From: Escherichia coli
GTDB lineage: Bacteria > Pseudomonadota > Gammaproteobacteria > Enterobacterales > Enterobacteriaceae
NCBI RefSeq assembly: GCF_003019035.1
Contig: NZ_CP027448.1
Reading direction: 5' to 3' (one strand)
DNA: 64,000 nt
Shown: positions 4,119 through 64,000 of the stretch, one piece after another
Layout of the letters: the number at the start of each line of letters is the position of its first letter
Position numbering within the stretch: position 1 is the first letter of the stretch
The notes under the pieces: generated by a model
What the model saw: the letters and a program-made list of their open reading frames with translations, nothing else
The model's database searches: none
What the model was told of the DNA's origin: nothing
Translations under genes and position numbers: made by a program

Positions 4119-4978
4119 TTAAAGATATTGTTTAAACCATTGTGTCTGCACAGCTACTACACGTTCAAAAAACGCGCCCTCATAAATATCATAATGGCAT
4201 GCATCAGCTTCCTCGTATAATTCCTTAGTACCAGAAGCAACAGCATCATATAATGCTCTTCCCTGTTCCGGTGGATTAACGCTATCCTGGCCGGCAATAA
4301 CAACCAAAACTGGGCACTGGACGCTGGCTGCACTCTCTGCCGGTTTATATTGCAACGTTTCCATGACCGTAAGGAAAGGTATTTTTATATCCATTTCGGG
4401 ATGCCGGGCTTTGATTTTCTCGAAGAATACCTTCGATTCATTATCACTTAGTACCCGTGTAACCCCCACAAACATCTCTTTCCCGGTGTTTTTCTTCTTC
4501 TCTGCCATTTTATTCAGCGTGGATAGAAAAGACGCTCTCTCCGATTCATTCATCTCTCCGGTAACCAGAACATCACCGTCAGCAAAAGCCAGCTGGCTGA
4601 CAATACATTTTACGCGTTGGTCCTGCGCAGCTGCACTGAAGACATGCCCCCTCCCAGCGATGTTCCCCATAACCCAATACGCTGATTATCAATACATTCC
4701 TGCTTTTCTGCCCAATTGATAACTGAAATAATATCTTCGGTCTGCATTGCAGGAACCAGACGCCCTCGTTCTCCATCACTCTCACCGAATCCTCGATAAT
4801 CAAAAGTAATCGTTGCGAATCCTGCTTCTGTGAAGGCATTCGCAAAGCAAGGGAGCAGAACATTCCTGATACCGCAAAACCCATGGCATAAGATAATCAA
4901 CGGATGTTTTATATTTCCTTCAGGAACACGAAATGTCAGGGCAATACCTTCAGAGAGTTTGTGATCCGTAATTTTCAT
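4119..4978 (-). pseudogene. Frameshifted alpha/beta-hydrolase (dienelactone-hydrolase-like) gene
   Basis: Two overlapping ORFs in different frames (4610..4978 with GxSxG elbow GLWGTSLGGG, and 4119..4670 continuing ...GHVFSAAAQDQRVK...) that read as one hydrolase if a 1-nt shift near 4620..4660 is corrected. Confidence 0.6.
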
Positions 4979-5036
4979 AAATATCCTGTGTTATGTTGTT
5001 TATTAATAATCAGAATCAGCGTCAGTATCATACCAG

Positions 5037-5783
5037 TCACAACGCCAGAATGCCCAGCACAGCCAGATGACAGGCATAGAACGTCGGGAAAAAATCCCCG
5101 GGCCAGAAACGGGGTAATGATTTCCCTGCACACGACACCAGACCAACGGTCAGCACCGTCATCACAAGACCAGCTACAGCCGCCACATCACTGATAGTAA
5201 GGTTAAGAGCAGGAATAACAGCCAGCAGGCATGTAACCAGAACCAGACTCTCCGCTCTGTATTCCGCCCGGTATACCCGGTAGCTGGCCGCTAACATCAA
5301 CACCCCGACAATACCGTAACTGGTACCGGACAAAGGCAGCCATACTGCCAGAAGCGACATAGTCCCTGCGGAACGCCACAGGCTGCGCGTTTCACACCAT
5401 GTCAGCACCTGTGCCGCAACGGCAAAGGCAAACAGGATATTCCCCTCATACCAGGGAAAGCCGGCCAGATAATATGCGAACTGGGCAATCACTGCCCATC
5501 CCCACAACCGGTTAATGGCCTCCTGCCGGATATGCGTATGACGGGACAGATTCAGCCCCCACACCAGGGCAAAAAGCGGAAAGGCTCCTCGACCGGCCAG
5601 AAACATCCACGTCTTGTCCAGATGCAGAATGCGGTTTGCATGGTCCAGTACCATCAGCACCAGTGCCACCGTTTTGATGATATCCCGCTGTCCGGGTGAC
5701 CAGACCAGCAACGACTGCAACCAGGTATCGGTCCGGGCAGCCAGTGAATCGTTACGTGTCGTGTTCGTGTTATCCGTTGTCAT
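5037..5783 (-). CDS. traX: TraX pilin N-acetylase
   Basis: ORF contains MTTDNTNTTRNDSLAARTDTWLQSLLVWSPGQRDI..., matching F TraX; start set at the internal Met. Confidence 0.9.
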   Translation of the reverse strand: MTTDNTNTTRNDSLAARTDTWLQSLLVWSPGQRDIIKTVALVLMVLDHANRILHLDKTWMFLAGRGAFPLFALVWGLNLSRHTHIRQEAINRLWGWAVIAQFAYYLAGFPWYEGNILFAFAVAAQVLTWCETRSLWRSAGTMSLLAVWLPLSGTSYGIVGVLMLAASYRVYRAEYRAESLVLVTCLLAVIPALNLTISDVAAVAGLVMTVLTVGLVSCAGKSLPRFWPGDFFPTFYACHLAVLGILAL

Positions 5784-5802
5784 CAGTGTTTGTCTTCCTG
5801 TA

Positions 5803-11382: not shown

Positions 11383-11780
11383 TGCTGAAGTTTATGCTCA
11401 ATACCAACATCTGCATTTTTACGATAAAGAACAAACCCGCCAGTGTCAGGGAACGTTTTAACCTGAACCAGGGGAGAATGTGCATCAGTTCGGTCACTCT
11501 GATGGAGCTGATATATGGTGCAGAAAAAAGCCAGATGCCTGAACGTAATCTCGCTGTGATCGAGGGATTTGTTTCCCGCATTGACGTTCTGGATTACGAC
11601 GCTGCTGCTGCCACACACACCGGCCAGATAAGAGCAGAACTTGCCCGTCAGGGACGCCCTGTCGGGCCATTTGATCAAATGATCGCAGGTCATGCCCGCA
11701 GTCGGGGACTGATTATTGTGACTAATAACACCCGGGAATTTGAACGTGTGGGCGGCCTGAGAATTGAAGACTGGAGTTGA
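11382..11780 (+). CDS. vapC: VapC/VagD PIN-domain toxin
   Basis: 132-aa ORF with PIN-like pattern (MLNTNICIF..., ...LIIVTNNTREFERV), start overlaps the antitoxin stop. Confidence 0.8.
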   Translation: MLKFMLNTNICIFTIKNKPASVRERFNLNQGRMCISSVTLMELIYGAEKSQMPERNLAVIEGFVSRIDVLDYDAAAATHTGQIRAELARQGRPVGPFDQMIAGHARSRGLIIVTNNTREFERVGGLRIEDWS

Positions 11781-11788
11781 CCTGTTCA

Positions 11789-13942
11789 TCAGAAATCATC
11801 TCCCGGCTCAACATCCTCCCCGCGCTCCCGGTGCACATTAATGTTCACCTCTTCACGACGCTGCATCTGCTGCTGGATGTCCGGATGATTTTCCTGTTGC
11901 CATGCCTCATAAGCGGCCATATCCACCACTTCACCGGATTCACTGATCCCGGGTGGCAGTTGCTGTTCCATCTCTTCTTCCGGTTTCATTTTCAGCTCCT
12001 GCTCGATCCCCCCTACCGGAACATTCACACCTGAATCTGACTTCTTATCGTTGATGGCAGGAGACACCGGCTGTTGCGGCTGTTCAGCCTGAGTCACGTC
12101 TTCTCCGGAAACAACCTCCGGGACATCCGGTTCGAAGAGGCTGGCCATCTGACGACCTTCTGCTTCCCTTGCGGCAAGTACGGCACTCAGACGGTTCTCC
12201 ATTTCCGGGTTGATGTCACGCGGAATAAACTCCGGAGCGACCTTCGGTCGTGTCTGATATTTCAGAGAGAGTTTTACTGCCGGATACGGTCCGGGCAGGG
12301 TGACATAACAGGTCAGATCCGGCAGAGACTGAATGTCGGAATAACTGACCAGCGTCTGGCGCTCCATATCCTTACCGGTCGATACCCCGTCACGTACCGG
12401 ATCAGCACCGTAGGAATACTGCTCGCTGGCTTTCAGGTGCTCTTTCTCACCAATTTCACCGGCAGCGAACTCTGCAATCTTATGGCTGGGAGAACGGAAA
12501 AAGGCACGGGTGTTCATGACGTCAAACAGCGAGGCAGCCGCTTTCTCACCGTAGATATCTTCCAGCTGGGCATAGGACTGGATACCAAACACATAACAGC
12601 CACCGAACTTACGGGCTTCCGGCAGGATCTCCACCAGGTCCGGCAGTTTGTGTAACGTGGGTAACTCATCACAGAAAAACCACACACGACGGTTACGGTT
12701 TTCTCCCATTGCCAGCAGACCACGAATGGCAATGGACAGCCACATGGAGATCACCGGCTTCAGGGAGGCATGGGTGTCGGCATTCGACGAAATAAACAGC
12801 CAGCCGTTTTTCTGATCTTCCCGGACACCACGCATCCAGTCACGGATGGTAAAAGACTCACCGTTATGCTCAATCCCCTGCAGGTAACGGATGGCTTTCA
12901 CGTAGTTGGTCAGCACAGCACGGATGGAAATCGCCGTTTTCTCAATTTTCTCTTCCACCAGGTTGGCCGCCGGTGAATTACGCAGGAAGGTACGCAGTTT
13001 TTCGATTTTGATGGAAAGCAGTGTGTCCACCAGTTTGCTGTAGCTGCGGTTGGGGTCATTACGCATCAGGTACGCCGCTTCCGCAAAAATGGTACGTCCT
13101 GACCCCTGCCAGAACGGGTCCTCTTTTGTGCCCATCGGGATCAGCGTGTTCGCGGTATTATCAAAATCCGGCTGTGTCAGGCACTCCTTCCACAAATCCC
13201 AGGCGGCACAGCGGGCATCCAGCGGATTCAGGATTTTATCGATGGAGGGATCATAGTAACTTTTAACAAATTCCCCTGAACGGTCATAAATCACCACCAT
13301 ATCTCCACGCTGACGGGCGTAGTTGGCCAGACGACGGATAACTTCCGACTTACCGGCCCCGACCGTGCCGTGCAGACAGAAGTTCTGGATTTCGGAATCC
13401 CGGATAATCGGCAGGTCGCCAATCCGTATATCGGAGTCCTTGCCGTCTTTTTTCAGCATCCGGGCAACGTCTTTCGGATTGTCTGTCAGCTGACGACCAC
13501 CTGTGACTTCATTTTCGCTCTGTTGTTTACCCTGACGCCCCAGAATCCAGGAGACAACAAAGAAGGTAATCAGGCAAATAACCAGTGCCACAACTGTGGC
13601 CAGAACGAATGCGGACCATAGCTGCTCTCCGCACCAGATCATATATTTATCATGCAGTACCTGAGCAGCATTCATCCGGAAGGTTTTGCCGTAATACTGG
13701 ATCTCATATACCGGCTGGGACTTGATTAAATCCCGCATGCCTTCCAGCGTGGTACACCACCAGTAAATACAGCCGTTCACAAACGTCTGCCAGCTTATTT
13801 TTACCCATAAAACCAGACCAACGAGTATCCAGAAAAAAATAAACAGGCAGTAAAGCATGATATTGGCGATCTGGCTGAACATGCGGATACGCATGGACGC
13901 AATCTGACCGCCCTGGGTCATATCCTTTGCGTTAAAACTCAT
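11789..13942 (-). CDS. traD: TraD type IV coupling protein
   Basis: 717-aa ORF with N-terminal TM segments, Walker A GTVGAGKS and Q/P-rich C-terminus; matches F TraD and gene order. Confidence 0.95.
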
Positions 13943-14193
13943 GATGATATTCCGAAGAAAAAAGTCAGTCGGACTGATTATTAATGATGAAAAGATTAAT
14001 AACCGTTAAATTCCGGCTTCGCCGGCAACACTTCACGGTCGCACAAAGAATTTGCACAACCGCTCAGTGTTTTCATATTTATTTCGGAAACGCCGGGGAG
14101 AAATAAAATTTATTTTATTTCTTTCCGGGGTTGGACAACGAGCAAAGCGAGGCGTCAGTCAGGAGGCCGGTCAGACCAGCCTCCGGAAGATAA

Positions 14194-14925
14194 TCAGAGA
14201 ATATTTGCGATTGATTTGGCCAGCTGGTCTTCGAGAACAGGCTTCGCCTCTTCAAATTTCAGGTTAACCTTGTTCGCACTGGAGACCACACGGGTCTGAT
14301 ATTTATGCTGGTTACCTGTTTCAGTACTGGTCTGAATTTTCGCACCTGAAGTGCCCTGACGCAGGGCGGCAACATTATCTGTTGTCACCGTTGTCTTAGT
14401 ACGCTCTGCAATCTGCACATCCGTGATCATGGTATAGTTCACATCTTCCACCATCGCATCTGCAGCCATACCCACCAGACCAGCAGCAAGGCCCACACCG
14501 AGTGTGGCACCGGCAGAATTGGAATTATATCCGGTAATACCGGCACCTAACGCTGCACCAACAGCTGCGCCTTCATAACCACGGTTCAGCCATCCCTGAG
14601 ACTCCCGCAGATCCATCTTATCGGCCTTCAGCACATTCGCCTGAATCCAGTAGTAGGCTTTATCCGGAGAAGTCACCACCTGATACCCTTTTGCTTTCAC
14701 AGCATCAGCAATTTTGCCCTGCAGCCCACTCATGTCTTTATCAGACGTGTTTTTGATCTGCAGAAATACCGTGCGTTCGCTGGCGGGTTCAAGCCAGATG
14801 GTCTCACTCATCTGGGTCTTCACCTCAAGGTTACGCTTCTTGATTGCTGTGCTCATCGCACCACACCCTGAAAGGGCCAGAGTGGAACTGACCAGTGCAA
14901 CCATCATCAATTTTTTTGTTTTCAT
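14194..14925 (-). CDS. traT: TraT surface exclusion lipoprotein
   Basis: 243-aa [50 protein letters not shown]..., matching F TraT. Confidence 0.95.
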
Positions 14926-14938
14926 CCAAAATATCCTT

Positions 14939-15448
14939 TTAACTAACAGACTCTTTTTTGAACAGCCCTATTACTGAGGCTATAGCTGAGAGATTATAAC
15001 GATTTATGTCTATAGCATAAATAAAGAAAAAGATTATAAACAAAGCAATTAATAAAAACTCATATAAGAGTGTATGGGCAAATGAAACCATTGAAAAAGC
15101 AATCAAAAATGACAAGATATAAGTTTTGTTCTTATCATACATAAAAGATATAACTTTCGACTCATCTCTGAATTTTTCAGGGATAGCAAGATACAACATC
15201 ATTCCATTAGTAATGGCAACAAAAAGGATAAAACCCATTACGCCACTAAAACATATATCAAATCCGGCATCTCGGATATCAATTTTATCTGCCAGCAAAC
15301 GAAGAAATGTTGGCCATAATAAAACCCATAAAAACACATACCCCCCTGGCTTTATGACCTGTAATAATGGCGGGATATTAACCCCGTCTACAGAGAGTAC
15401 ATCCTTTAGTTTCTGTGTCTCCATTTTTATATCATAGTGAGTGATCAT
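14939..15448 (-). CDS. traS: TraS entry exclusion protein
   Basis: Hydrophobic 169-aa ORF between traG and traT, the conserved position of traS. Confidence 0.65.
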
Positions 15449-18270
15449 AATGGCCCCTTCAGTCGTTCCTTTTTACCATCAATCATTTTTTTCACAGCCT
15501 CTCCTGATGGCTCAGGTATTATCTTTTGACTTTCTCGCTCTTCATTATATTTATTATTCTGAGATAATGCTTCTGTTTTATGGTGATTCTGCAGTTCAGA
15601 ATACTGTCCTCTTACAATATTTTCCTCGCCATGTATGCTGTTCTGAGTATCACCTATATTCCCTTTATATTCTGTGACCATATTATCAACCTGATGTTTT
15701 ACATCATTACGGATATTACTGTCCTGTGTTCTTTGATCAATAATGGCCTGATGCCCCTGATGGTCAGCAATAATATTCTGGCTGCCACCACCCGAAGGTA
15801 CGCTCTCCATTCCTTTACCAATATCGCCACGGGATTCACGCCAGGCATTATCAACACCAGGTTGTACCTGTTCTTGCACAAAAGACCATGCCATCGCCCG
15901 ACGGCGTTCTGCAATCTCCGGTGAACTGGTGTTTGTCAGAATAGCTTCTGCATACTGCGGCGCGTGTTTCATCACATACTGTGCAAACTGTTGCGACAGG
16001 TCTTCACTCATCTGCCCACTCATGCTTTCAGTACGGGATGCCATTTCAGCATATTCATGGCTGCGGGTCATATTCGTCGTGTACTGGTCGTAACTCTGTT
16101 TCGCTGAGTTCAGGGCTGCAGACAACTGGTCCACGCGGGAATCGGCATTATTGTCAGTATGGCTTCCGGATTCACTGACTTTGCGACTGGTAAAGTAATC
16201 GCTGGCCTCTTTAAAGTCCTTACTGGCTCTAGCGTCAATATCATGGCGAGCATCATGGGAAGCCCTGCTGCCACTACTGGCTTCATGTGAGTCCAGATCA
16301 CTACCGTCAATACTGGCTCGCCCACCAACCTTAGCGCCAACATCAACACGCACACCAAAAAGGCTGGGCTTTGCATCTAATCCGGCATGAGCATCACCAT
16401 ACAATCCAGCTGATGCAGTCGTACTTCTCGATGCCAGTTCTCTTGTCGCCTGCTCATTACTGATATTATGCGCCTTCGCATAGCTTTCCACTGCACTGCG
16501 CATACGGCTGGCCATCATGGAGTCCTGAGCACTCATCGTGCTGTCAGCACCACCGGTGACAGAATCACTGCTCCCCCGGTTAGAACCAAACTGACTGAGC
16601 GTGTTCCAGGCACTGGCAATACTGCTGCTGAACCCATGCAGGGCACTTTCTGCTCTGTTCGATGCTTCCCGGGCCATTTCCTGTTGTGCCGCCGCAATCT
16701 GACGCGTTGCATTGATGCCGACCGGTAACCGGGACATCGCTCCGCTTGCATCCATCACCATATTACCATCACGGGTCTGTGTGGCGGTTGCGCCACTGCC
16801 GGTCTGGTACATCATCTGACCAAACGACGTGGTGCTGTTGGTGCTCCAGCTGAAGCCGTTCACGTTCTCCGTCTGCATGTTGCCGTAGGAGTAATTACCG
16901 TCAACCACACTGCCTGCTGCACTGGCGGTCGGGCTGATAGCAGAGGAAGCGAAATGGCTGTACACACTGGAAAATCCTGCCCCGAGCCCCCTGACCATCA
17001 TCCAGGATAATGGCGGGATCATCATGGAAAGATACCCGGCAGTGGAAGCCAGATCGGAGTATTTCAGCTGTATCTGTGAAATTTCCGAGAGCACCACCGG
17101 TGCACCATTCTGCTTCGCATAAAATGTCATGGCGCTGTTCAGAATGGCGTACAACATTGGCCATGACTGCAACCACATCAGGGCAAACACATAGCCTTTC
17201 AGGACGGACAGCGTCAGTTTGTTGAAGACAGCCGCCAGTACCAGGAGCGGGAAAATACCGATGGCGATCCCCGTCAGGATGGTCTGCGTCATGGGCAGTG
17301 TCCGCATCGCCACATGACCGATGGAGACATGTGCCAGACGTTGCTTCTCCATCGATGATGTGGTGGCCAGATTCACCAGGCTGGCCGAATCACCATTACG
17401 TGCGGCATAACTGGTGATCCCCTCCTTCAGCGCATTGATGGTGACATTCTGGCGGATGATCTGGCTGGCTGATTTACTTGAGCCATAGAAGTAACTGTAA
17501 CTGTCGCCAATCAGCGTACTGAACAACAGGTTCGGATCAGGGCGTCCACCAAATAGCTGCTGGGCATAATAATGCCATGTTTTTCCGCCACTCTGTGTGT
17601 CCAGATTCAGCTTGTCTTTCAGCGAAACCGACGCGTCCTTACAGGTCACGAAATTATTATTGCTGTCATAAACGCCCCGCAGCGGACTGGGGCGGGAAAA
17701 AATCAGCGTGTAAGGATCAGCGGAGGCCATCAGTTCCTCCAGCGTGTATTTGTGGTTCAGGTAAATATCCCCCATCACGCAGTTCTGCACATAATCCTGG
17801 AAAAGATTGGCGATTTCCGGATTACGGGACAAAAAGTCGGTGCTTTTTGATACCAGTTCTGCGCCAAACAGCATCCCCGTTTTGCTGTAGGTGACACTGT
17901 CCGGTTGCGTGAAGATCATCTCGTAACTGGCCACCATTGCATGCCCGATACGGGTCGTCAGTGAAAGTGGCATCGCCAGTCCGACCGGCACATTATCCAC
18001 CCGGTGAATTTTGACCAGGTCACTGTTATCAATAATCTGCACCGATGTGCGGACATTAACCAGCAGGCTGATAAGCACAAACACGGCCACCCAGCCCAGC
18101 AAATCCATCACGTTGTGCCGCTGTACCCACATTACGGCCACCGCTAGAACAGACAATGTGAGCGCAATTTTTTCAATGGAATCCCACGTCCGGGTCCCCA
18201 TAAAGGCGGCAATGGCATTCAGGTTATTCCGCAACCACTCACCACCGGCAATCACATAAACTTCATTCAC
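15445..18270 (-). CDS. traG: TraG mating-pair stabilisation protein
   Basis: 941-aa ORF, size and position as F TraG. Confidence 0.9.
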   Translation of the reverse strand: MNEVYVIAGGEWLRNNLNAIAAFMGTRTWDSIEKIALTLSVLAVAVMWVQRHNVMDLLGWVAVFVLISLLVNVRTSVQIIDNSDLVKIHRVDNVPVGLAMPLSLTTRIGHAMVASYEMIFTQPDSVTYSKTGMLFGAELVSKSTDFLSRNPEIANLFQDYVQNCVMGDIYLNHKYTLEELMASADPYTLIFSRPSPLRGVYDSNNNFVTCKDASVSLKDKLNLDTQSGGKTWHYYAQQLFGGRPDPNLLFSTLIGDSYSYFYGSSKSASQIIRQNVTINALKEGITSYAARNGDSASLVNLATTSSMEKQRLAHVSIGHVAMRTLPMTQTILTGIAIGIFPLLVLAAVFNKLTLSVLKGYVFALMWLQSWPMLYAILNSAMTFYAKQNGAPVVLSEISQIQLKYSDLASTAGYLSMMIPPLSWMMVRGLGAGFSSVYSHFASSAISPTASAAGSVVDGNYSYGNMQTENVNGFSWSTNSTTSFGQMMYQTGSGATATQTRDGNMVMDASGAMSRLPVGINATRQIAAAQQEMAREASNRAESALHGFSSSIASAWNTLSQFGSNRGSSDSVTGGADSTMSAQDSMMASRMRSAVESYAKAHNISNEQATRELASRSTTASAGLYGDAHAGLDAKPSLFGVRVDVGAKVGGRASIDGSDLDSHEASSGSRASHDARHDIDARASKDFKEASDYFTSRKVSESGSHTDNNADSRVDQLSAALNSAKQSYDQYTTNMTRSHEYAEMASRTESMSGQMSEDLSQQFAQYVMKHAPQYAEAILTNTSSPEIAERRRAMAWSFVQEQVQPGVDNAWRESRGDIGKGMESVPSGGGSQNIIADHQGHQAIIDQRTQDSNIRNDVKHQVDNMVTEYKGNIGDTQNSIHGEENIVRGQYSELQNHHKTEALSQNNKYNEERESQKIIPEPSGEAVKKMIDGKKERLKGPL

Positions 18271-54695: not shown

Positions 54696-55129
54696 GTACC
54701 GTTTATCACCGTCCGGCTGACCCTTCAGGCGATGACAGTTACGTGCGACCGTTGTTTGCCGATCGTTGCCAGGCCGGTTTTCCTTCGCCTGCCACTGATT
54801 ATGCTGAGCAGGAACTGGATCTGAACAGCTATTGCATCAGCAGACCTGCAGCCACCTTCTTTCTGCGCGCCAGCGGTGAATCGATGAACCAGGCTGACGT
54901 GCAGAATGGTGATCTGCTGGTAGTGGACAGGGCCGAAAAACCACAACACGGGGACATCGTTATCGCTGAGATCGACGGTGAGTTCACCGTCAAACGACTG
55001 CTGTTGCGCCCACGCCCGGCACTGGAGCCGGTTTCAGACAGCCCGGAGTTCCGCACACTGTATCCGGAAAACATCTGTATTTTTGGTGTTGTCACTCACG
55101 TGATACACAGGACGCGGGAGTTACGCTGA
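54692..55129 (+). CDS. impA: ImpA (UmuD-like S24 peptidase-domain protein)
   Basis: 145-aa ORF with LexA/UmuD-type Ser-Lys dyad context (ASGESM ... K) and overlap with impB start. Confidence 0.85.
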   Translation: MSTVYHRPADPSGDDSYVRPLFADRCQAGFPSPATDYAEQELDLNSYCISRPAATFFLRASGESMNQADVQNGDLLVVDRAEKPQHGDIVIAEIDGEFTVKRLLLRPRPALEPVSDSPEFRTLYPENICIFGVVTHVIHRTRELR

Positions 55130-55251
55130 TGTTTACACTGGCTGATATCAACAGTTTCTACGCCTCATGTGAAAAAGTTTTCCGCCCGGACCTTCGCAAC
55201 GAACCGGTCATCGTACTCAGCAATAACGATGGCTGTGTGATCGCACGCAGC
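55126..55251 (+). pseudogene. impB: impB (UmuC-like Y-family polymerase), 5' fragment cut by insertion
   Basis: MFTLADINSFYASCEKVFRPDLRNEPVIVLSNNDGCVIARS matches the UmuC N-terminus, then leaves homology and hits a stop at about 55284. Confidence 0.8.
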
Positions 55252-55301
55252 CCAGATTATGTGGAATTGCAAGTAACGTTGTAGTGCTGATGAGGAAAAT
55301 T

Positions 55302-57530
55302 TTATCTGACTACAATATTGATATCGTTTTCCGCAACAATCAGCATCACGGCAGGTAAACCCTCCACACGCATTTTCTGGTGTAATTTTTTGATTAAATT
55401 ATCATCTTCATTACTGGCTTTTGCGGAAAAGCCTTGTGGATGGGAGTGCCATTCGCCAACATAATCGACAACACGAGCGGTCAACTGGTGAACCCGTTCT
55501 AATGCTTCTTGTTGTCCCGCTTCTCCCCGGACAAAGGAGGCTGGAGAGGATTTACTGTCGATAGGTTCAGGGAGCACGTCAACCAGAATAATCGTTTTGT
55601 TCTTAAAATCTGTTATGCCAACAATTGCACCTCCTGTTTCATTAGGCAGTGCCTGTAAGCGGGTGTGCTGCAATTTTTGCGCTAAGCCCTGGTCATATTT
55701 AACAACCCATTCGCCAGAAATTATAGATACCACGGAATAGAGTTCAATTTCATGTGCATCCATCGCGCCTGATATTTCATCAGATACCCAGATACACAAT
55801 CGAGCATTTCCTTTGAGTGCAGTCTGGCGAAGTTGGCGTGAGAGGATACCGGCATGAACATGAATACATTCACTGGACATACGTACAGAAATATCCCGAC
55901 ATCCACCACCGACCCAACGATCGCCATAATTGTGCTGTAGGTGAGTACTTCCCCACTCACTGCTCAAAATTGCCCGATAGTATTGCCCCTCAATTGCATC
56001 AATTCGGCATTGTCTGTCTACATCCTCCATTAACATCACGCTAGACTGACCCGATGGAGTCAGAAACAGGCTAACTATTCTGGGTATATCATCTTTTAAC
56101 ACTAGAGTCCTCGGCACCTCAAAGGTGGTACTGACATCCACAACTAAGTCTGCCTCATTCATTGCCTTAGCAATATCATCATCGTCATCAAGAATACTTT
56201 TATGGATCGCCTGAGGGAGGGGCTCATGCGGATAAATAGATTTGGCAATATGCTGAATAATATGGGGTTTTGAGACTCCAATATGACAATCAAACCCAAT
56301 ATGGCGAGACAAATTATGTGGAAGAAGCCGATCTGGATCAATAAAAGTCCATGTCCCCCACCCCATTCGAATCCAAATATCAGCCAATGTACTACCAAGA
56401 GCGCCAACTCCAGCTAAAATACCTCGAAAAGCTGCACTCTCTGAATCAACAGCAGATATGTCTCTCGCATGTGTGGCCTTCATAGCCGAACGTATTTCAA
56501 CTGGTAAAAGCGGTAATTGTCGCCACTTGGTACTAATTGATCCGCCAAGAAGCCGTACGCGATGCTGTACTCCTCGCTCATTTTTTGGCGCCAGCATATC
56601 TAGTGCAGTGGCAAGTTCACCGAGTGAACTTTGCACAACATAGCCCATCACATCCGTACGTTCTGTTTCTCCGTTTCTTAGACGGGGGATCCAAAGCAGG
56701 ATAAGTAAGCCTTCTCCTTTACCAGACGTTGGGCGGATACCATCACTTGGTATTGCTTCATAAACAGCGTCAGTTAGTGGTTTTAGGAGCTCACTTCCCC
56801 ATTCATTAAGTTGTTCTTCTAATTTTCCCAGATTATCCGGGTATGTAGCCACCGTAGAAACATCGACAGGAGGAACAGCAATAGTTAATAAGCGAAATGG
56901 CTTAACGCTTGAGGTATCTTGTTCTGGTACAGCCCTTAAAATAATCGGTCGCCCCTCACTGACCATCTGGAGACTGAGCTTATTGTCAGTCGCGTGATGA
57001 TAATCGGGGTAATTGGCTGGCAAAATGAGCTGATAGGGACTCAAATAAAAAAGTTGCTCAAGTGGCTGATCTTCTCGATGTAGATGCAGTTCGGCCGATT
57101 CTCTAAGCCACCAAAAAATGCGCTCAAGGAATCTCTCGGGGGTCCAACTGCGCTCAACTGCGCTCCAGGAGGCCTCATATAGGCAAAGAATTCGTGGTGA
57201 GCCAGGTTCTCCAGCATGCTGGTGAGAAAGAACAGGGAAATCTTTCCGCAATGCATGAACCAAGATAGGTATGCTTGATTTGGGATTGACCTCAATAGCC
57301 AATCGTTCTTTACGACGAATACGGGCTTGATTACCAGAAGCCACAGTCCCATCAGCAGCATCAATGATTAGATATTCCGAGCGGTTATCATTTATTTCAG
57401 AAAATCGTAATTCTCTGACTGTGACGTAAGGATGATTCTCGCATGCTTTAAGCAGCGAAATCGTTTGTGGATAAAGGCTATCGCGCCCCGATGAATCGAG
57501 GCGCTCACCCAATTCGAAATATTCGATCAT
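55302..57530 (-). CDS. Fused E2-like / E1-like (ThiF/MoeB) / JAB-MPN peptidase protein
   Basis: 742-aa ORF: N-terminal H...C pattern (HQHAGEPGSPRILCLY, UBC-like); central Rossmann GILAGVGALGSTLADIWIRMGWGTWTFIDPDRLLPHNLSRH (E1 signature); C-terminal JAMM-like EWHSHPQGFSAKASNEDD. Confidence 0.75.
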   Translation of the reverse strand: MIEYFELGERLDSSGRDSLYPQTISLLKACENHPYVTVRELRFSEINDNRSEYLIIDAADGTVASGNQARIRRKERLAIEVNPKSSIPILVHALRKDFPVLSHQHAGEPGSPRILCLYEASWSAVERSWTPERFLERIFWWLRESAELHLHREDQPLEQLFYLSPYQLILPANYPDYHHATDNKLSLQMVSEGRPIILRAVPEQDTSSVKPFRLLTIAVPPVDVSTVATYPDNLGKLEEQLNEWGSELLKPLTDAVYEAIPSDGIRPTSGKGEGLLILLWIPRLRNGETERTDVMGYVVQSSLGELATALDMLAPKNERGVQHRVRLLGGSISTKWRQLPLLPVEIRSAMKATHARDISAVDSESAAFRGILAGVGALGSTLADIWIRMGWGTWTFIDPDRLLPHNLSRHIGFDCHIGVSKPHIIQHIAKSIYPHEPLPQAIHKSILDDDDDIAKAMNEADLVVDVSTTFEVPRTLVLKDDIPRIVSLFLTPSGQSSVMLMEDVDRQCRIDAIEGQYYRAILSSEWGSTHLQHNYGDRWVGGGCRDISVRMSSECIHVHAGILSRQLRQTALKGNARLCIWVSDEISGAMDAHEIELYSVVSIISGEWVVKYDQGLAQKLQHTRLQALPNETGGAIVGITDFKNKTIILVDVLPEPIDSKSSPASFVRGEAGQQEALERVHQLTARVVDYVGEWHSHPQGFSAKASNEDDNLIKKLHQKMRVEGLPAVMLIVAENDINIVVR

Positions 57531-58714
57531 TGGTTTGATACACCTGCCCTAGGAGCGGCGGCCGTAGCAGCACTTACCGCAGCTGAAACAGCACCAACAA
57601 TAGCGGGTATTAACTTCCCGTCTCCAGCCACTTCAAATTCAAGGAACGCTGTATCTTTAAGATCCCCCGTACAGCTAAACCAACCATCAACACTGTCCAG
57701 AATATCCTCATACTCACGCTTAGCCCGGATGCACGGTGGATCATAATCATCATCAAGTATCTGATTGCTACTCGATACAATTGTTGCCCCGGAACGAGCC
57801 TGACCTAAAGCATTACGGGCCGCATCACAAACTTCAGCATTCTCCCCCCATTGTGACCAGCTATCATAGGAAAGTGAATGCCATGAACAATGATGCGGTG
57901 TGAGGAGAAGATCATATTCTAGTGCCTCAGCATTGCTTTTGTAACGATCCCATAATCGCTCCCAGATGAGAACTTCTGCGTCTCCACCTAATAGAAAGTG
58001 CATAGGATTACGGGAATATGCAGAGGGCAGTATTTTCATGTTCATGATGATACTGGATTCGTTTTTAGAAAGAGCTTCTTCCAAATATTCATCATCTTCA
58101 TGTGGTGCGGGCGCCAGAAGCTGTGCGGAGAACACTTCTGAAATTTGCCCGTCAATTCTGGTGAATGTATCTCCAGCTTTGATAAGAATGGCACTCAGAT
58201 CATCTGTTTTGCCATTAATATCTTCACCCATGATAAGGATTCGATTACCGCTAGATGCATAACCATGTTCCCGCCAGTATTTTACTCGGCGCCGTGCTTC
58301 TGTATTAAATGCCTGAGCATCTTCGCAAAGTGTGTGACTTTTGGAACGACGCCGAAAAATCAATGGTGATGACCACAATTCTCGAATAATGATACGCTTT
58401 TCTGAACGTTTCACATCGTCATCTGGATAATCTTCAGGACGGCCCAGCCAGAAATGTTTACGCAGGCCACCGCAATGATCCTGATCGGGATGACTGAGCA
58501 TAAAAACATCAATAAAGGGACGATCTTTTTCATCATACTTCAATCTGCTACGTAATGCCGAGGCAACATCAGGTGTGTCATCATTGGGGTTATCAGCAGC
58601 AGAGCGAATATGTACATCAATCAGAATGGATGTGCCCCGGGTGTCGGCCAAACGTACCAGTGTCATATCACCGTTGCCGACTTGGAAAAAAGTAATTTTG
58701 GCTGCCATCGACAT
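57527..58714 (-). CDS. Metallo-beta-lactamase-fold protein
   Basis: 395-aa ORF with HPDQDHCGG (HxHxDH metal site); stop overlaps the downstream start (ATGA). Confidence 0.8.
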   Translation of the reverse strand: MSMAAKITFFQVGNGDMTLVRLADTRGTSILIDVHIRSAADNPNDDTPDVASALRSRLKYDEKDRPFIDVFMLSHPDQDHCGGLRKHFWLGRPEDYPDDDVKRSEKRIIIRELWSSPLIFRRRSKSHTLCEDAQAFNTEARRRVKYWREHGYASSGNRILIMGEDINGKTDDLSAILIKAGDTFTRIDGQISEVFSAQLLAPAPHEDDEYLEEALSKNESSIIMNMKILPSAYSRNPMHFLLGGDAEVLIWERLWDRYKSNAEALEYDLLLTPHHCSWHSLSYDSWSQWGENAEVCDAARNALGQARSGATIVSSSNQILDDDYDPPCIRAKREYEDILDSVDGWFSCTGDLKDTAFLEFEVAGDGKLIPAIVGAVSAAVSAATAAAPRAGVSNQ

Positions 58715-58767
58715 CTCCTTTAGGGATACGAAAGATTGAGGTTAAGAGCATCTATTGCTAAGATACA

Positions 58768-58796
58768 TCTAGTAATTATACTAGTCTAGTAATTAG
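58768..58796. promoter_or_regulatory. Direct repeats in the divergent promoter region; candidate operator
   Basis: tctagtaatta at 58768..58778 and 58785..58795, in the 128-bp gap between divergent operons. Confidence 0.35.
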
Positions 58797-58842
58797 ACGT
58801 ATATTTTGGACTTAAATTGTAAGTACAGGAAATTATTGATAA

Positions 58843-59697
58843 ATGAGTGATAAAATGGTGAGAACTGGTCATTGGAGCCAAGAAAGACGGCTTGAATTCA
58901 TCGATTTTCGCCTACTGTGGGAAGGTCGGCTTAACCGTGCAGATCTCACGACATTTTTCAGAATTTCAGTTCCGCAAGCCTCATTAGATTTGGCAAAATA
59001 TCAAGAAGTTGCGCCAAACAACATGGTGTATGATCGAACTCAGAAGGCTTACATTACGACTCCTGATTTCAAACCTGTTTTTACAAGCTTTGACAGTAAT
59101 CATTACCTGAATGAACTACTTGGGCGAGAAAATGAAATAGTGGATCCTGATGATAGTTTCATTGGGTGGGTACCCCCGGTAGCCAGCCTTCCTCTCCCTG
59201 CCAGGAAAGTACAACCTGAAATATTGATTGATTTAATTCGAGCCATGCAAAGAAAACAGGCTTTGGTTGTTGATTATCGCTCAATGACTAATGAACCAGC
59301 AATTCGTACGCTATACCCAACAGCATTTGCACATGATGGGCATCGGTGGCATGTTCGTGCTTATTGTTTTAAGTCTACAATGTTTAAAGATTTTGTTCTT
59401 GGTAGGTTTTTTAAAATCGTTGAATTTGTTTCCCCACCGACATCAATTCCACAAGATGTGGACTGGAATACATTTATTGACGTGGTAATAGGTCCAAACC
59501 CTAACTACGATATGAATAAACGGCTATCTATTGAACATGATTATCAAATGGTAAAAGGAGAAGCAAAAATCCACATACGTAAAGCGCAATTATATTATCT
59601 TAATCGTCGATTAAATTTGGATGTAAATAGCGATGGTTCAATAGATGACAAACAGCAGATCATCATGCTCAGAATAGACGAGTCTAAAACCTATTAA
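58843..59697 (+). CDS. wHTH-WYL regulator (BrxR/CapW-like)
   Basis: 284-aa ORF with N-terminal HTH-like region and WYL-like segment LVVDYRSMTNEPAIRTLYPTAFAHDGHRWHVRAYCFKSTMFKDFVLGRF. Confidence 0.65.
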   Translation: MSDKMVRTGHWSQERRLEFIDFRLLWEGRLNRADLTTFFRISVPQASLDLAKYQEVAPNNMVYDRTQKAYITTPDFKPVFTSFDSNHYLNELLGRENEIVDPDDSFIGWVPPVASLPLPARKVQPEILIDLIRAMQRKQALVVDYRSMTNEPAIRTLYPTAFAHDGHRWHVRAYCFKSTMFKDFVLGRFFKIVEFVSPPTSIPQDVDWNTFIDVVIGPNPNYDMNKRLSIEHDYQMVKGEAKIHIRKAQLYYLNRRLNLDVNSDGSIDDKQQIIMLRIDESKTY

Positions 59698-59709
59698 GGG
59701 AATATTTAT

Positions 59710-60228
59710 ATGAATGCGAATGATGTTAACAAACGGAATAAAGAATGGATGATTGTAATCATTATTATCTATCTTTTTATTTTGTTATGTATAGCAACAT
59801 ACGCTATTGGGGCTATGTCTCTAGGTTGGTTACCAACACCTTACGCACCATTAAGGGTGCCACTGATGTGCGGAGCAATTGCCTATATAGGTGGTTGTTT
59901 ATATTGTTTTCGTGCAATTTACCTCAATAAATGTATTAGAAAACAATGGGATCCAGATTGGCATGTATGGTATTTCATTCGCCCACTGACCAGTACAATC
60001 GCAGGTGCTATCAGTTATTTATTCCTTAAGGCGGGGTTGTTAGTTTTGGAGTCTAGTTCCAATGTAGGAGCTAGTGAAATGGGTTTCTTTGCGCTGGCAT
60101 TTATTGCTGGTTTTAACGTCGATAAATTTGTCGCAAAAATCGAGGAAGTTGCAAAGGCTGTCTGGGGTATTGAAAAAACTCGAAGCTCGACTAATAATGA
60201 TGCGAAAAATTCGGAAAAAAAAGAATAG
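59710..60228 (+). CDS. Small multi-pass membrane protein (about 4 TM helices)
   Basis: 172-aa hydrophobic ORF 13 bp downstream of the regulator gene. Confidence 0.6.
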   Translation: MNANDVNKRNKEWMIVIIIIYLFILLCIATYAIGAMSLGWLPTPYAPLRVPLMCGAIAYIGGCLYCFRAIYLNKCIRKQWDPDWHVWYFIRPLTSTIAGAISYLFLKAGLLVLESSSNVGASEMGFFALAFIAGFNVDKFVAKIEEVAKAVWGIEKTRSSTNNDAKNSEKKE

Positions 60229-60274
60229 TCTGGATGTATTTAAATTAAAATGAAATTAGTGCTGAGCTATTTTA

Positions 60275-61594
60275 TTACTTTCTCTTATTTCCTGGGGTCG
60301 CGCCCCCAGTGAGCTTATTCAAAAGTTTGTCCACTGCCTGTATATCGTTTTCTACAGCGGCTTGTTCGTCATCAGTCAAAGGGATTTCCTGCATCAGCTT
60401 GAGTAGATTCTGGCGACCTTCCAAGTATTGTGCTTCAGATGAAGATTTTGGCATATAAAATGAGCATTTTGCACATGCCATCCGATGGGGGCATTGCTCA
60501 AAAAAGTCATAAGTACAGAAACCGTGTCCAAGATCATAATAACGCCATGGCTTCCCGGATGCTACCAGCCCTTCAGCTATCGCGTCTTGATCAATGAGAA
60601 CTGAAACCATGCGGCGATTACATTCAAAGTAACCAGCTTTATCCAGTGATCCTGCCAACCTCGTCGGTGTAATTTCGACATAATGTCGGGTAGATTCAGG
60701 TGAAGAATGCCCCAACCATTTCTGTAGCTCAAAAATATCAAGTGGTTCCCTGGCGTTGTAAAGCTGACTGGCTATAGTGGCTCTTGCCCGATGGCTGGTG
60801 ATTTTACCTCTGGCATCCTGCTCAGGTATACCAGCCTTTCTGCATAGCAAAGGGATTAGCGAATTATTAATATAACTACTGTGTACCCGTTTCCCCCTGT
60901 GCATGAACAAAAAACGGACGCTTTCACCTGTTTTAGAATCTTCCTGGAGGGGGTGGGGGTTACGAACAAGTTCCCATTGTTCGATATATTCCCCGATAAT
61001 AGGGTCAACTGGCTTTGTGAATGCCGCGTAAGTCTTGCTAACGGGTACATCTATCAGACAGATACGGGATACATTATTTTCTTCTGGCTGTTGCCAGCGG
61101 ATACACCCACACTGCATACGTAGAATTTCATCACGTCTGAGGCCTCCAAATAACCAGAGAACGCTGAGTGCTCTGACCATCTCCAGTGGATAAAAATAAG
61201 GATATGCAACACAGTTTGGTAAATCCGACTCCTGCAGGTTCTGTCCGGCGTGAAGTAATTTACACCACATATCATCGGCCACAATACGAGGCTCTGGTCC
61301 AACCAGGGAAGTCAAGCTACGCGGTGCCCTGAAAACTCTTTCTGGGCTGAATCGTACAGGTATCCATCCCCATTCCTGCAAGTCATGAAAGAAAGTTCTA
61401 ATATGACCCAACATCCTGGCTCTCGCTGCAGGCATCATCATTTTGCCACGACGGTCACGATACATGCCCCCAGGGGTTGCCCATTCACCAACTTTCATTC
61501 TACAAGCGGCGGTCACCCAGACGATCGCGGTGTCCCGTGTCCAATCAGATGGTGACAGACAGGTTGGATAGCACTCAGCTAACCAGCTGACCAC
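60275..61594 (-). CDS. Tyrosine recombinase (large, with C-terminal Cys/His cluster)
   Basis: 439-aa ORF with GGLRRDE, HRARAT, LGHSSPESTRHY catalytic-type motifs and CPHRMACAKC cluster. Confidence 0.8.
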   Translation of the reverse strand: MVSWLAECYPTCLSPSDWTRDTAIVWVTAACRMKVGEWATPGGMYRDRRGKMMMPAARARMLGHIRTFFHDLQEWGWIPVRFSPERVFRAPRSLTSLVGPEPRIVADDMWCKLLHAGQNLQESDLPNCVAYPYFYPLEMVRALSVLWLFGGLRRDEILRMQCGCIRWQQPEENNVSRICLIDVPVSKTYAAFTKPVDPIIGEYIEQWELVRNPHPLQEDSKTGESVRFLFMHRGKRVHSSYINNSLIPLLCRKAGIPEQDARGKITSHRARATIASQLYNAREPLDIFELQKWLGHSSPESTRHYVEITPTRLAGSLDKAGYFECNRRMVSVLIDQDAIAEGLVASGKPWRYYDLGHGFCTYDFFEQCPHRMACAKCSFYMPKSSSEAQYLEGRQNLLKLMQEIPLTDDEQAAVENDIQAVDKLLNKLTGGATPGNKRK

Positions 61595-62525
61595 ACTTTA
61601 GCAAAACGTACCAACCGGACAAAATAGATGAAGGGCGAAGTACTGAGGTAGCACGCCACCGTTTGCACCATACCAGCCATTTAGTTGGTACATCAGCTGT
61701 TGCATTATATTCGCGGGGAGGACGGCGACGTTGTGTTATTCGGTAATCAACCCCTTCCTCAATAGTCCCTGATGCAGCCAGTATACGCGATAGAGTAGCT
61801 GAGGCTTCCCGGAGGGAATCCGGGCACGTTGCAGCAATCTGTTGCAACGTGGTCACGGTGATATGGTCTAGTTGAGCATCCCTTTGCAGAAGCATTGCCA
61901 TACACATGGCATTTCTGATGCCGTTGTTCCGACTATCACGAGGCACATATCCCAGAACCTGCATCATATTGTCAAGCTGGCTGACGGCAAAATCGGTGCT
62001 CTGTCGGCCAAAAACCTTAAGACAGAGCCGATATTGATAGAATATGCCACAGTGTTCCAGCCGCTCAAACCCACATAGCAACCATGCTAACGCTATAACA
62101 TATTGCCGACAGTTGCCGCTGGCTCCAAACCGTCGACGAAATTCCCCTTCGCTGTTGCAAATAACTTCTAACCACTCTTCTTGTGTCCAGGCCCAGTATG
62201 TTTTCCGGATGCGCTGCATCTCTAGGACTATATCGTGAATAGATGAATTGTAGGGGGCCTTGGCCGCATGCATTTTTGTTAGCGTGTCGCGTAGTGGTAA
62301 AAGAAGGCGGGAAAGCCGTTTTTGTATATCAGGTGACCAGTTTTTACCTCCTTGCTGGAAGTGGTCGACCAATGTATCCAGTGCCGCAAGCTCGCTTTCA
62401 GAGATCTCCGATCGGGTATCCCAAAGTAGGGCAGGAAGACTGAGTGATGTTGTCGGACAAGGCGCTGTATGTTCAGATTGCATCATGGAGAAGGATCCTG
62501 CTGTTGTAGTACAGTAAGGCGGCAA
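61575..62525 (-). CDS. Recombinase-associated ORF (overlaps both flanking recombinase genes)
   Basis: 316-aa ORF overlapping the upstream gene by 43 nt and the downstream gene by 20 nt; no catalytic motifs seen; could be an accessory protein or the frameshifted N-terminal part of the 439-aa recombinase. Confidence 0.5.
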   Translation of the reverse strand: MPPYCTTTAGSFSMMQSEHTAPCPTTSLSLPALLWDTRSEISESELAALDTLVDHFQQGGKNWSPDIQKRLSRLLLPLRDTLTKMHAAKAPYNSSIHDIVLEMQRIRKTYWAWTQEEWLEVICNSEGEFRRRFGASGNCRQYVIALAWLLCGFERLEHCGIFYQYRLCLKVFGRQSTDFAVSQLDNMMQVLGYVPRDSRNNGIRNAMCMAMLLQRDAQLDHITVTTLQQIAATCPDSLREASATLSRILAASGTIEEGVDYRITQRRRPPREYNATADVPTKWLVWCKRWRATSVLRPSSILSGWYVLLKCGQLVS

Positions 62526-63535
62526 GTATGCAAGGATGCGACCGTGTAATTGAAACGACTACTCAGATCACGTGCGCTGAGATGAATATAGAGCAGAGTT
62601 GACTGGATACGACGGTGGCCAGCGAATGCAGCAATTTCGTGGATGTCCCACCCCACGCGTGCCAGTTCTGTCAGACAAAGATGTCGGAATGTGTGGGTGC
62701 TGATGAGTGGAAGATCAGCCTTAATAGCTAAACCGCGAACTACTTTTGACCAAGTCCAGTTGCTAATAGGTTCTGCCCGATTACGCGGAGAGCGTGAGAG
62801 AAACAACGGACCGCGAGATGAGCTTAGCATACGACGTTCAGTGAGCCATGCTGTGTAGAGTTCCCCCGTCACAGGAGAATAGGGCACAACCCGACCAAAG
62901 CGGTTTTTGGTATGCTCAGCGCGCACAGTGAGCAAGCGTTGAGAAGGGTCAATATCTCCGGTAGCTACTGTGCAAAGTTCTTCTCTGCGTAATCCGCAGT
63001 CGTAGGCCAGTGCCAGCATAAAACGAGTACGGATATCAGCTTGTCCGGCTACCTCAAGAAAGCGCAACCACTCCGCATCATCCGGGATCCACGGTAGCCG
63101 CCGCTGCAACGGCACTATACCAGCTTTTCCTTTCCCTCCGTTTTTCCAGACACCTCGTCTGACAGGATTTCTCTCCCGTATCCCCTCCTCACAAAGCCAA
63201 TAGTTGTACAGTCGTACCACCGTCAGCCGGTGGCGGATAGTGGCAGCTGCCAGCTGGCGACCGGTATGCAGGCTGCGGACATAGAGTGCGACCGTATCAC
63301 GTCCAGCGACAGCAGCCGTCAGGGCAACAGAGTGACAGAAAGCGAGCCAGTCATTGACGCCACGGGCATAGGCATCAATGGTGTTTGGAGCACACAGCAG
63401 GTCCTCCTGCAGGCACACCCACCGGCAAGCTGAAGGATCGGCCGACAGAAAAGGCAGCGCATCCAGCAGTTTCTTGTGCACAGCATCCCCCTTTTCGATA
63501 ACAGAATGTGTTGTATGAAATATAGTCAATTCCAA
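62483..63535 (-). CDS. Tyrosine recombinase (XerC/D-like)
   Basis: 350-aa ORF with GLRREE, HTFRH, GHRRIQSTLLYIHL catalytic-type motifs. Confidence 0.85.
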   Translation of the reverse strand: MELTIFHTTHSVIEKGDAVHKKLLDALPFLSADPSACRWVCLQEDLLCAPNTIDAYARGVNDWLAFCHSVALTAAVAGRDTVALYVRSLHTGRQLAAATIRHRLTVVRLYNYWLCEEGIRERNPVRRGVWKNGGKGKAGIVPLQRRLPWIPDDAEWLRFLEVAGQADIRTRFMLALAYDCGLRREELCTVATGDIDPSQRLLTVRAEHTKNRFGRVVPYSPVTGELYTAWLTERRMLSSSRGPLFLSRSPRNRAEPISNWTWSKVVRGLAIKADLPLISTHTFRHLCLTELARVGWDIHEIAAFAGHRRIQSTLLYIHLSARDLSSRFNYTVASLHTCRLTVLQQQDPSP

Positions 63536-63543
63536 ATAACATA

Positions 63544-64000
63544 GAAGCGAAGCGGCTGGGCATAAAAATGGGAGTACCGTGGTTTCAGCTGAAGTCGGTG
63601 AAATTTCCGGAGCCGGTCATCGCCTTCTCCAGTAATTACGCGCTATACGCATCGATGTCGAACAGGGTTATGTCTCATCTCGAGGAGCTGGCGCCGGGCG
63701 TGGAGCAGTACAGTATTGATGAGATGTTTCTCGACGTGCGGGGTATTGACAGCTGCATCGATTTCGAGGATTTCGGCCGGCAGCTGCGTGAACACGTCAG
63801 GAACGGGACTGGCCTGACTATCGGTGTCGGAATGGGGCTAACCAAAACGCTGGCAAAGTCAGCACAGTGGGCTTCCAAAGAGTGGCCACAGTTTGGTGGC
63901 GTGCTGGCGTTAACGCCAGGCAATATCCGCCGTACGGAAAAACTGCTGTCACTGCAGCCGGTGGAGGAAATCTGGGGGGTAGGCAGCAGGATATCAAAGA
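63544..64000 (+). pseudogene. impB: impB (UmuC-like), 3' portion after the insertion (continues beyond window end)
   Basis: In-frame EAKRLGIKMGVPWFQLKSVKFPEPVIAFSSNYALYASMSNRVMSHLEELAPGVEQYSIDEMFLDVRGID... matches the UmuC region that follows the N-terminal fragment. Confidence 0.8.

Follow-up and report, generated by a model that had tools for sequence, protein, structure and literature searches.

A probable Tn554-type recombinase pair with a frameshifted large gene in an 8,289-bp element inserted in umuC of Escherichia coli plasmids

Introduction

Tn554 encodes the proteins TnpA (361 aa), TnpB (630 aa) and TnpC (125 aa), and its target is att554 in the radC gene. Pairs of a long and a short recombinase were described as "Tn554-related" by Van Houdt et al. 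(2012; PMC3414803), and these include a class devoid of TnpC (Famint41/36, e.g., in pRHL2). In a 2022 preprint, the Tn554-family elements were described as lacking terminal inverted repeats. [quoted passage not shown] The umuC gene was also reported as a hotspot of those SEs (strand-biased circularizing integrative elements) that carry tmexCD (PMC8547460, PMC10654056, PMC10214605). In our study, we analyzed a stretch of 64,000 nucleotides of Escherichia coli (contig NZ_CP027448.1, assembly GCF_003019035.1; hereafter the window), in which three overlapping open reading frames (ORFs) were present in a recombinase region at 60275–63535. The three ORFs were found to be two genes, encoding a small and a large tyrosine recombinase, with the large one broken by one added base. 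The pair is, with high probability, a Tn554-type two-gene module of a site-specific transposon, namely of an element of 8,289 bp that interrupts codon 43 of umuC. One umuC-inserted transposon of Tn554-like type, Tn7519, had been registered before, and the locus is a decayed further example of this kind.

Results

Three ORFs and two genes

The three ORFs were found head to tail on the minus strand, at 63535..62483 (ORF1, 350 aa, TTG start), 62525..61575 (ORF2, 316 aa, TTG start) and 61594..60275 (ORF3, 439 aa, GTG start), with overlaps of 43 nt between ORF1 and ORF2 and of 20 nt between ORF2 and ORF3. ORF1 had Xer-type NCBIfam matches of the XerC/XerD kind (E ~1e-26) and aligned to XerD at E=3.6e-13. 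ORF3 had an Xer-type NCBIfam match and a Pfam Phage_integrase match over residues 142–309 (E=2.7e-13), and it contained the cluster CPHRMACAKC. ORF2 alone gave no match in Pfam or NCBIfam. The ORFs with their sizes and overlaps, the CPHRMACAKC cluster and the presence of tyrosine recombinases at both sides had been given in a sequence-only reading of the window, and all of these were borne out by the ORF listing and the family searches. The overlaps of 43 and 20 nt belong to the maximal ORFs and not to the likely genes. In the RefSeq annotation of identical plasmids, gene 1 starts at GTG 63481 and encodes 332 aa, and the TTG at 63535 falls within the terminal inverted repeat of the element. 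Gene 2 starts at ATG 62486 in the same annotation, and where it meets the stop codon of gene 1 the two genes overlap by 4 nt (ATGA). The 20-nt overlap of ORF2 and ORF3 is the footprint of a frameshift and no gene junction.

The base that splits the large recombinase gene was found at 61588 on the minus strand (an A on the coding strand), where GGTCGCTGG was changed to GGTCAGCTGG. Removal of one A from GGTCAGCTGG gave an uninterrupted ORF of 736 aa, and GGTCGCTGG is the exact natural sequence in plasmid pCEC15 and in three E. coli chromosomes, where it is annotated as a single recombinase of 736 aa. The 5' segment of the gene (61575..62486, minus strand) encodes residues 1–299, with the all-helical N-terminal extension, and has 4 out-of-frame codons. 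The 3' segment (60275..61594, minus strand) encodes residues ~298–736, which comprise a portion of the core-binding domain together with the catalytic domain, the Cys/His cluster and C-terminal helices.

Only 12 relatives were retrieved when ORF2 was searched by itself. This looked at first like an orphan gene, a reading that was rejected, as the sequences of the relatives continue into ORF3. In the longer relatives (Serratia, 373 aa; metagenomic, 435 aa; Acidobacteriota, 480 aa), the counterpart of the end of ORF2 passes directly into that of the start of ORF3, as ...LLKCGRWLA..SPADWTR.., whereas the window reads ...LLKCGQLVS and a stop codon, followed in the other frame by VVSWLAECYPTCLSPSDWTRD. 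With the 736-aa protein as the query, 585 representative clusters matched at E<=1e-30; most of the best 150 of these were 720–790 aa in length and aligned in one stretch across almost the whole query. Full-length relatives of the large recombinase were found at 45–79% identity. The sequence-only reading had offered ORF2 and ORF3 as one large TnpB-like recombinase cut by a frameshift, and this was confirmed by intact alleles that differ by one base and by a family norm of ~740 aa.

Nature of the frameshift

With a 63-nt query across the junction, 94 complete E. coli records were found to have the insertion allele at 100% identity, and 12 had the intact allele. Among the matches listed, every frameshift allele was on a plasmid, and the intact alleles were on chromosomes and plasmids. 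In all inspected rows, the frameshift allele was on a plasmid, and those that extended into the flank had one and the same plasmid umuC flank. The intact alleles occupy at least three sites. The element of the window was 99.43% identical to that of pCEC15 over 8,295 bp, with two indels; the insertion at 61588 was the only coding one, and the second was found at element position 4744 (~58802 of the window), in the intergenic stretch that separates the MBL gene from the WYL gene. The product of the 5' fragment (303 aa) belongs to a cluster (90% identity) of 289 member sequences, found on at least 1,000 contigs, and the 439-aa product to a cluster of 708 member sequences. Its occurrence in 94 complete E. 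coli records means that the frameshift is no sequencing error but real; it is also clonal. Comparison of the alleles indicates that the insertion is the derived state and is confined to one lineage; the sister alleles and all distant homologues do not contain it. Large recombinase genes were found to be broken also in Serratia, in Acidobacteriota and in two Pantoea loci (species), at other positions, as expected for the decay of resident copies. Judging from the sequence, the split of the large recombinase most likely leaves the copy of the window immobile.

It is unlikely that the split is tolerated or exploited, either by a +1 ribosomal frameshift near AGC-TGA or by assembly of the fragments, and that the element is still mobile. 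A skip of one base at the stop of ORF2 would give a protein of the same length with only 4 different residues, the GTG-started ORF3 begins at residue 298 so that no residue is lost, and large genes are split in the other lineages named above. However, the breaks in those lineages are at different places, as decay predicts, and the derived insertion is seen in one lineage only, in all inspected rows on plasmids and, as far as the flank was covered, with one umuC flank. The context of the insertion is neither a homopolymer nor a slippery site, and no slippery or Shine-Dalgarno-stimulated motif was found at the site. Moreover, the break falls within a helix (residues 285–305) of the core-binding domain that was modelled confidently by AlphaFold. 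Programmed +1 frameshifting was rejected on the sequence context and on the derived insertion.

A sequencing or assembly error, with an intact gene in the real molecule, is scarcely credible. Single-base indels are a common assembly error, but 94 complete E. coli records, each assembled independently, have an identical 63-nt junction that includes the added base, the clusters of both products are large, and the site is not a homopolymer. The sequence-only reading had left room for such an error, which is not borne out.

The idea of a genuine three-gene module, in which a non-catalytic middle protein (like Tfp, GinC or a RIT member) stands between two flanking recombinases, is equally remote. 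It would agree with the lack of a catalytic motif and of any Pfam or NCBIfam match in ORF2, with the three separate genes in the RefSeq annotation of identical plasmids, and with the intA-tfp-intB order of SEs, the tmexCD members of which were reported in umuC (PMC10214605, PMC8547460). It is, however, already refuted by the intact alleles, which differ by one base and encode one protein, and single chains of ~740 aa are the norm of the family. Independent homologues of the middle ORF were looked for and none was found; every homologue of ORF2 runs on into the sequence of ORF3, and the recombinase-trio module proposed earlier falls with this. The SE proteins of pHNAH8I-1 gave nothing better than E ~0.1, and no coding sequence for Tfp, Srap or TnpC was found in any frame.

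A derivative of the same frameshifted element was observed in E. coli p98889 (locus L001, 15486–22022), where IS3 and IS66 elements, together with pieces of tra genes, have taken the place of the defence cargo. The recombinase region of this derivative is 2 bases longer than that of the window, which indicates further decay. The large recombinase of a Tn554-layout module in Rhodococcus pyridinivorans pRJH2 (3375–5296) is annotated as pieces of 138 and 475 aa, and split annotation of these long recombinase genes may be common.

Features of the two recombinases

The small gene (62483..63481, minus strand) encodes an apparently intact TnpA-like tyrosine recombinase of 332 aa with XerC/XerD-type matches; in its alignment with XerD, the R, H-x-x-R and H...Y boxes correspond. 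It was identical to the protein of pCEC15 at 331 of 333 aligned positions (332 residues and the stop). The catalytic R-H-R-Y residues are present in both recombinases. In an alignment of 60 sequences, residues R450, K484, H565, R568, H593 and Y602 of the large recombinase were conserved (invariant or nearly so), and so was the Cys/His cluster C657-C665-H667-C671-C674, which is the CPHRMACAKC motif. The AlphaFold model of the large recombinase had a pLDDT of 85.7 and contained a helical N-terminal extension (~1–240), a helical core-binding domain (268–415) and a catalytic domain (434–617), followed by the Cys/His region and terminal helices. Foldseek matched the model to XerA, XerH, IntI, Tn1549 Int, lambda Int and Cre.

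Among the distant matches, modules of Tn554 layout on Rhodococcus and Legionella plasmids were found to contain the gene of the small recombinase, that of the large one and then that of a DUF6262 protein of 101–126 aa. The matches to these modules were specific, with E=1e-17 for the small recombinase and, for the large one, E=5e-14 and 3e-13, and the modules have in common with the window a C-x7-8-CPH-x3-C-x2-C tail (CPHxxxCxxC). In a plasmid search, the large recombinase matched pRHL2 (NC_008270) at E=2e-30.

Ends of the element and insertion in umuC

The recombinase pair was found at one end of an element of 8,289 bp (55257–63545), which, according to RefSeq annotation and sequence, interrupts codon 43 of the plasmid umuC. 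Its 13-bp terminal inverted repeats were located by pattern search, the recombinase-distal one (TTATGTGGAATTG) at 55257..55269 on the plus strand and the recombinase-proximal one (TTATTTGGAATTG) at 63527..63539 on the minus strand. The pattern TTATKTGGAATTG occurred exactly twice in the 64-kb window, at both ends and inverted (0.01 occurrences expected by chance). The terminal repeat was conserved at the element ends in Pantoea, Erwinia, Paracoccus, Acidobacteria and Spirosoma.

The target-derived hexamer CCCAGA (55251..55256) adjoins the recombinase-distal end, and the element-borne hexamer CATAGA (63540..63545; TCTATG on the recombinase strand) lies between the proximal repeat and umuC. The contexts compared were E. 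coli F-type plasmids, pCEC15, the E. coli chromosome, Klebsiella and Acidobacteriota, and in every context examined the distal hexamer was that of the local, native umuC (CCCAGA, CCCGGA, CGCTGA, AATTGA or CCGCGA). The CATAGA hexamer was identical in three different E. coli umuC targets and was also present in the elements of Pantoea eucrina, Pantoea rodasii and Erwinia sp. S63 (72–77% protein identity). It is missing from the empty site, and the proximal hexamer varies slightly in more distant lineages. The element hexamer stood at the proximal junction in five contexts in which both ends are known and in several with one end, and the junctions were alike in more than 8 contexts.

The 5' fragment of umuC/impB (55129..55256, plus strand) contains codons 1–42 and 2 nt of codon 43 and translates to MFTLADINSFYASCEKVFRPDLRNEPVIVLSNNDGCVIARSP. 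It is annotated as "protein ImpB, partial" in an identical plasmid (locus L002) and is colinear with the uninterrupted umuC of another locus (L008). The 3' part of umuC (63546..64000, plus strand) resumes with ...EAKRLGIKMGVPWFQ and continues past the end of the window; it is annotated as umuC "missing N-terminus" in p98889 and in L002. The reading frame is continuous across the plasmid umuC junction (ARSP followed by EAKRLG). At the chromosomal site, the two flanks joined with the distal hexamer between them gave the uninterrupted umuC at 100% over 240 nt. As the empty site is thus restored exactly, the inserted DNA is the segment from repeat to repeat together with the proximal hexamer (8,289 bp), and nothing was duplicated or lost. 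No empty site was found that is identical to the umuC variant of the plasmid itself, and the closest uninterrupted gene (L008) diverges just past the junction. By eye, the attB arms had no resemblance to the repeats of the element. A chimeric ORF of 51 aa (55129–55284) consists of the first 42 UmuC residues and 9 element-encoded residues. The upstream umuD is intact, so that the plasmid retains UmuD without a functional UmuC.

The pair is very improbable as plasmid housekeeping machinery (Xer-like multimer resolution or an inversion switch): although XerC and XerD are the best family matches of the small protein and the IncF plasmids have partition and replication genes close to the locus, the two genes lie inside a discrete insertion the removal of which restores umuC exactly, identical copies are present in chromosomal and plasmid umuC, and relatives hold unrelated cargo between the same ends.

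The element of the M3 chromosome was found to be 100.000% identical to that of pCEC15 over 8,289 bp. These two copies are in different umuC genes and have different distal hexamers, and the strains CEC15 and M3 each hold a chromosomal and a plasmid copy. The identical intact copies at two different umuC genes indicate that the element moved recently.

Cargo genes

By its matches to NCBIfam equivalogs, far above the cut-offs, the cargo is a 6A-MBL anti-phage system. The Cap2_3 protein (E1/JAB; 742 aa; 55302..57530, minus strand) matched NCBIfam NF058523 at E=2e-198 (661 bits, cut-off 320), and the MBL-fold protein (395 aa; 57527..58714, minus strand) matched NF058524 at E=1.4e-127 (426 bits, cut-off 220). 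A WYL-domain protein of 284 aa (58843..59697, plus strand) is annotated in RefSeq in the identical plasmids, and its gene was conserved with the same cargo in a Klebsiella element of 60% identity. A hydrophobic hypothetical protein of 172 aa, a small membrane protein, is encoded at 59710..60228 on the plus strand, opposite to the recombinases. It was conserved in the E. coli and Klebsiella copies and had no NCBIfam match. Its role as an analogue of TnpC or Srap was considered and rejected, as six-frame searches for DUF6262, Srap and Tfp gave no similarity.

Relatives in other phyla

The scan of species-representative genomes gave 258 relatives, of which 80 loci were kept. These loci span Proteobacteria, Acidobacteria, Chloroflexi, Cyanobacteria, Actinobacteria, Bacteroidota, Myxococcota and others, and in 77 of the 80 a homologue of the small recombinase stands immediately upstream of the large gene. 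Among the 80 loci, umuC flanks were confined to the relatives in Erwiniaceae, Paracoccus, Rhodobacter and Acidobacteria, and one Streptomyces locus gave a weak match. Unrelated cargo was found between the same type of ends. Cargo-less elements of 3.27 kb with only the two genes were present, one of them in the umuC of Pantoea rodasii, and the entire 3,279-bp contig of Erwinia sp. S63 is an element.

A clade of ~35% identity was found on plasmids of Pantoea, Enterobacter and Klebsiella. Its members are inserted at a different umuC motif, after SSNYxL (~codon 75), in the opposite orientation and with the end sequence TAGTAAGTTAAGTGGAATGC. They carry cad/ars metal resistance, type II restriction-modification, or CBASS together with an ATPase/TOPRIM pair. 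In Pantoea eucrina (NZ_MAYN01000006.1, ~2490–9003), one umuC apparently contains two different elements back to back, a 77%-identity relative at codon 43 and a member of the 35%-identity clade in the opposite orientation, and only codons 43–76 of umuC are left between them. A decayed relative in Acidobacteriota (L004/L005, 6963–11073) is in a umuC-like gene beside umuD; both of its recombinase genes are fragmented, and its cargo is a ParDE toxin-antitoxin pair only.

Discussion

Like the Tn554-type elements, the element of the window contains an ordinary and an abnormally long tyrosine recombinase (332 and 736 aa), which are adjacent, co-oriented and at one end of the element. Its site-specific insertion in a conserved gene, without target duplication and with hexamers at the junctions, is also common to both. 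The sequence-only reading had preferred a multi-recombinase Tn554-like element to a simple phage-type integrase, and this holds, with two recombinase genes. The large recombinase differs from that of Tn554 in its longer N-terminal extension, and the element differs from the Tn554 family in its clear 13-bp terminal inverted repeats. Its flanking hexamer is constant and travels with the element, whereas that of Tn554 is a footprint of the previous site, and its target is umuC. It also contains no TnpC-like gene; none was found in the cargo-less relatives, which have two genes only, or in six-frame DUF6262 and Srap searches of the element. Strict membership in Tn554 is thus excluded, whereas membership in the wider group is not, because TnpC-less relatives are described in PMC3414803.

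Tn7519, which was compared by its description only, is the same kind of element in the same target gene, with copper resistance in place of the 6A-MBL defence cargo. An SE was considered from the intA-tfp-intB order and the umuC target. The SE has in common with the element the imperfect terminal inverted repeats flanked by 6-bp spacers and the absence of target duplication. The SE identity was, however, rejected, as no similarity to the tmexCD1 SE core of pHNAH8I-1 was found (11570–17063, annotated "int-int-hp-hp"; IntA 429, Tfp 576, IntB 679 and Srap 140 aa). Its four proteins gave no match to the recombinases below E=0.2 in BLASTP and phmmer and E ~0.14 in hhalign. Tfp-, Srap- or TnpC-like coding potential was absent from every frame of the element, which therefore does not contain the four-gene intA-tfp-intB-srap core. 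By the SE rule, the 6 bp of the target lie beside the intA-proximal repeat and the 6 bp of the previous site beside the distal repeat (PMC10214605). In the element, the polarity is opposite, with the target hexamer beside the distal end and the travelling hexamer at the proximal end. The host range of the element family is also far wider than the Gammaproteobacteria of SEs. A further mark of SEs is an attL x attR recombination from which a circle of one strand arises and no empty donor site is left. Although they are unrelated in sequence, SEs were reported at umuC as well, and unrelated recombinase systems seem to have converged on this gene. GInts (ginABCD) and recombinase-in-trio (RIT; ritABC) elements resemble the element as mobile elements of several tyrosine recombinases with the recombinase operon at one end. 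They are set apart by gene content, as both need three recombinase-fold proteins, and GInts also GinD. A GInt was rejected on the presence of two recombinase genes only, and a RIT because the middle ORF, without a catalytic domain, is the N-terminal part of the gene that continues in the third ORF.

By analogy with Tn554, SEs and GInts, the repeats would be bound by the two recombinases, and the ends would be joined to form a circular site of 13-6-13 layout, CAATTCCAAATAA-CATAGA-TTATGTGGAATTG. This site may then recombine with the conserved umuC sequence in a strand-biased manner, which would always bring the element hexamer back to the recombinase-proximal side. The constant proximal position of the hexamer requires a strand bias in the exchange or in its resolution; both arrangements of the hexamers would arise if a 6-bp staggered exchange were symmetric and replication came after it. 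The frameshift allele would have lost mobility and would be inherited passively with its IncF plasmid lineage, and the element of the window is probably stranded in its umuC.

Several points weigh against this explanation of the locus. The homology to Tn554 itself is indirect, being suggested by the proxy modules and PMC3414803. No circular intermediate or joint of the element was seen in a metagenome scan for the 13-N6-13 joint, and the sole joint-like contig, a 96-bp tandem mini-unit without recombinases, is no evidence for a circle. The scan for a promoter upstream of the small recombinase gene gave no convincing promoter-like site. The loss of function of the split protein is something that we infer from sequence, and with the GTG of ORF3 at 61594 the two fragments together keep every residue.

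In about 100 E. coli plasmid records, a "hypothetical protein" and a short "integrase" are the two halves of one pseudogenised transposase-like recombinase. The exact ends, the predicted joint and the target are now defined for a type of element the boundaries of which were called hard to find. The umuC genes of conjugative plasmids and chromosomes are a reusable insertion site for elements with anti-phage systems, and the insertion also inactivates the error-prone polymerase gene of the plasmid. Since the intact allele of E. coli CEC15 and M3 looks recently active, the mechanism is directly testable, with the frameshift allele as a natural negative control.

The conserved ends, the fixed hexamer, the two umuC sites and the defence cargo are more interesting than the recombinase feature itself, which is ordinary. 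A wider reading may be proposed tentatively. The locus would be a decayed copy of a largely uncharacterised TnpC-less two-recombinase family of many phyla, with 13-bp ends (TTATKTGGAAT). The element hexamer would always be proximal, a rule unlike those of SEs and of the Tn554 footprint, and would point to a fixed strand-biased exchange. Two clades would be inserted at umuC codon 43 and ~75, and umuC would be a landing pad, shared with SEs, for defence systems (6A-MBL, CBASS and restriction-modification), toxin-antitoxin and metal resistance.

Two further observations concern small units. Many draft-genome contigs of 3.3–3.9 kb consist of the two recombinase genes alone, some with a high coverage given in their names (e.g., cov 306 in Mycobacterium helveticum), which suggests multi-copy minimal elements, especially in Actinobacteria. 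The metagenome contig WNGD01021823.1 (5330–5491) contains a tandem unit of ~96 bp with both repeat types and a TATACG hexamer; no recombinase gene was found on this 5.5-kb contig. The layout of the unit is TATACG-TTATTTGGAATTT...CAATTCCACATAA-TATACG-..., with the internal site AATTGCCAAATAA-CGTGTA-TTATGTGGACTTG, and it may represent a non-autonomous derivative of miniature size or else a recombination site.

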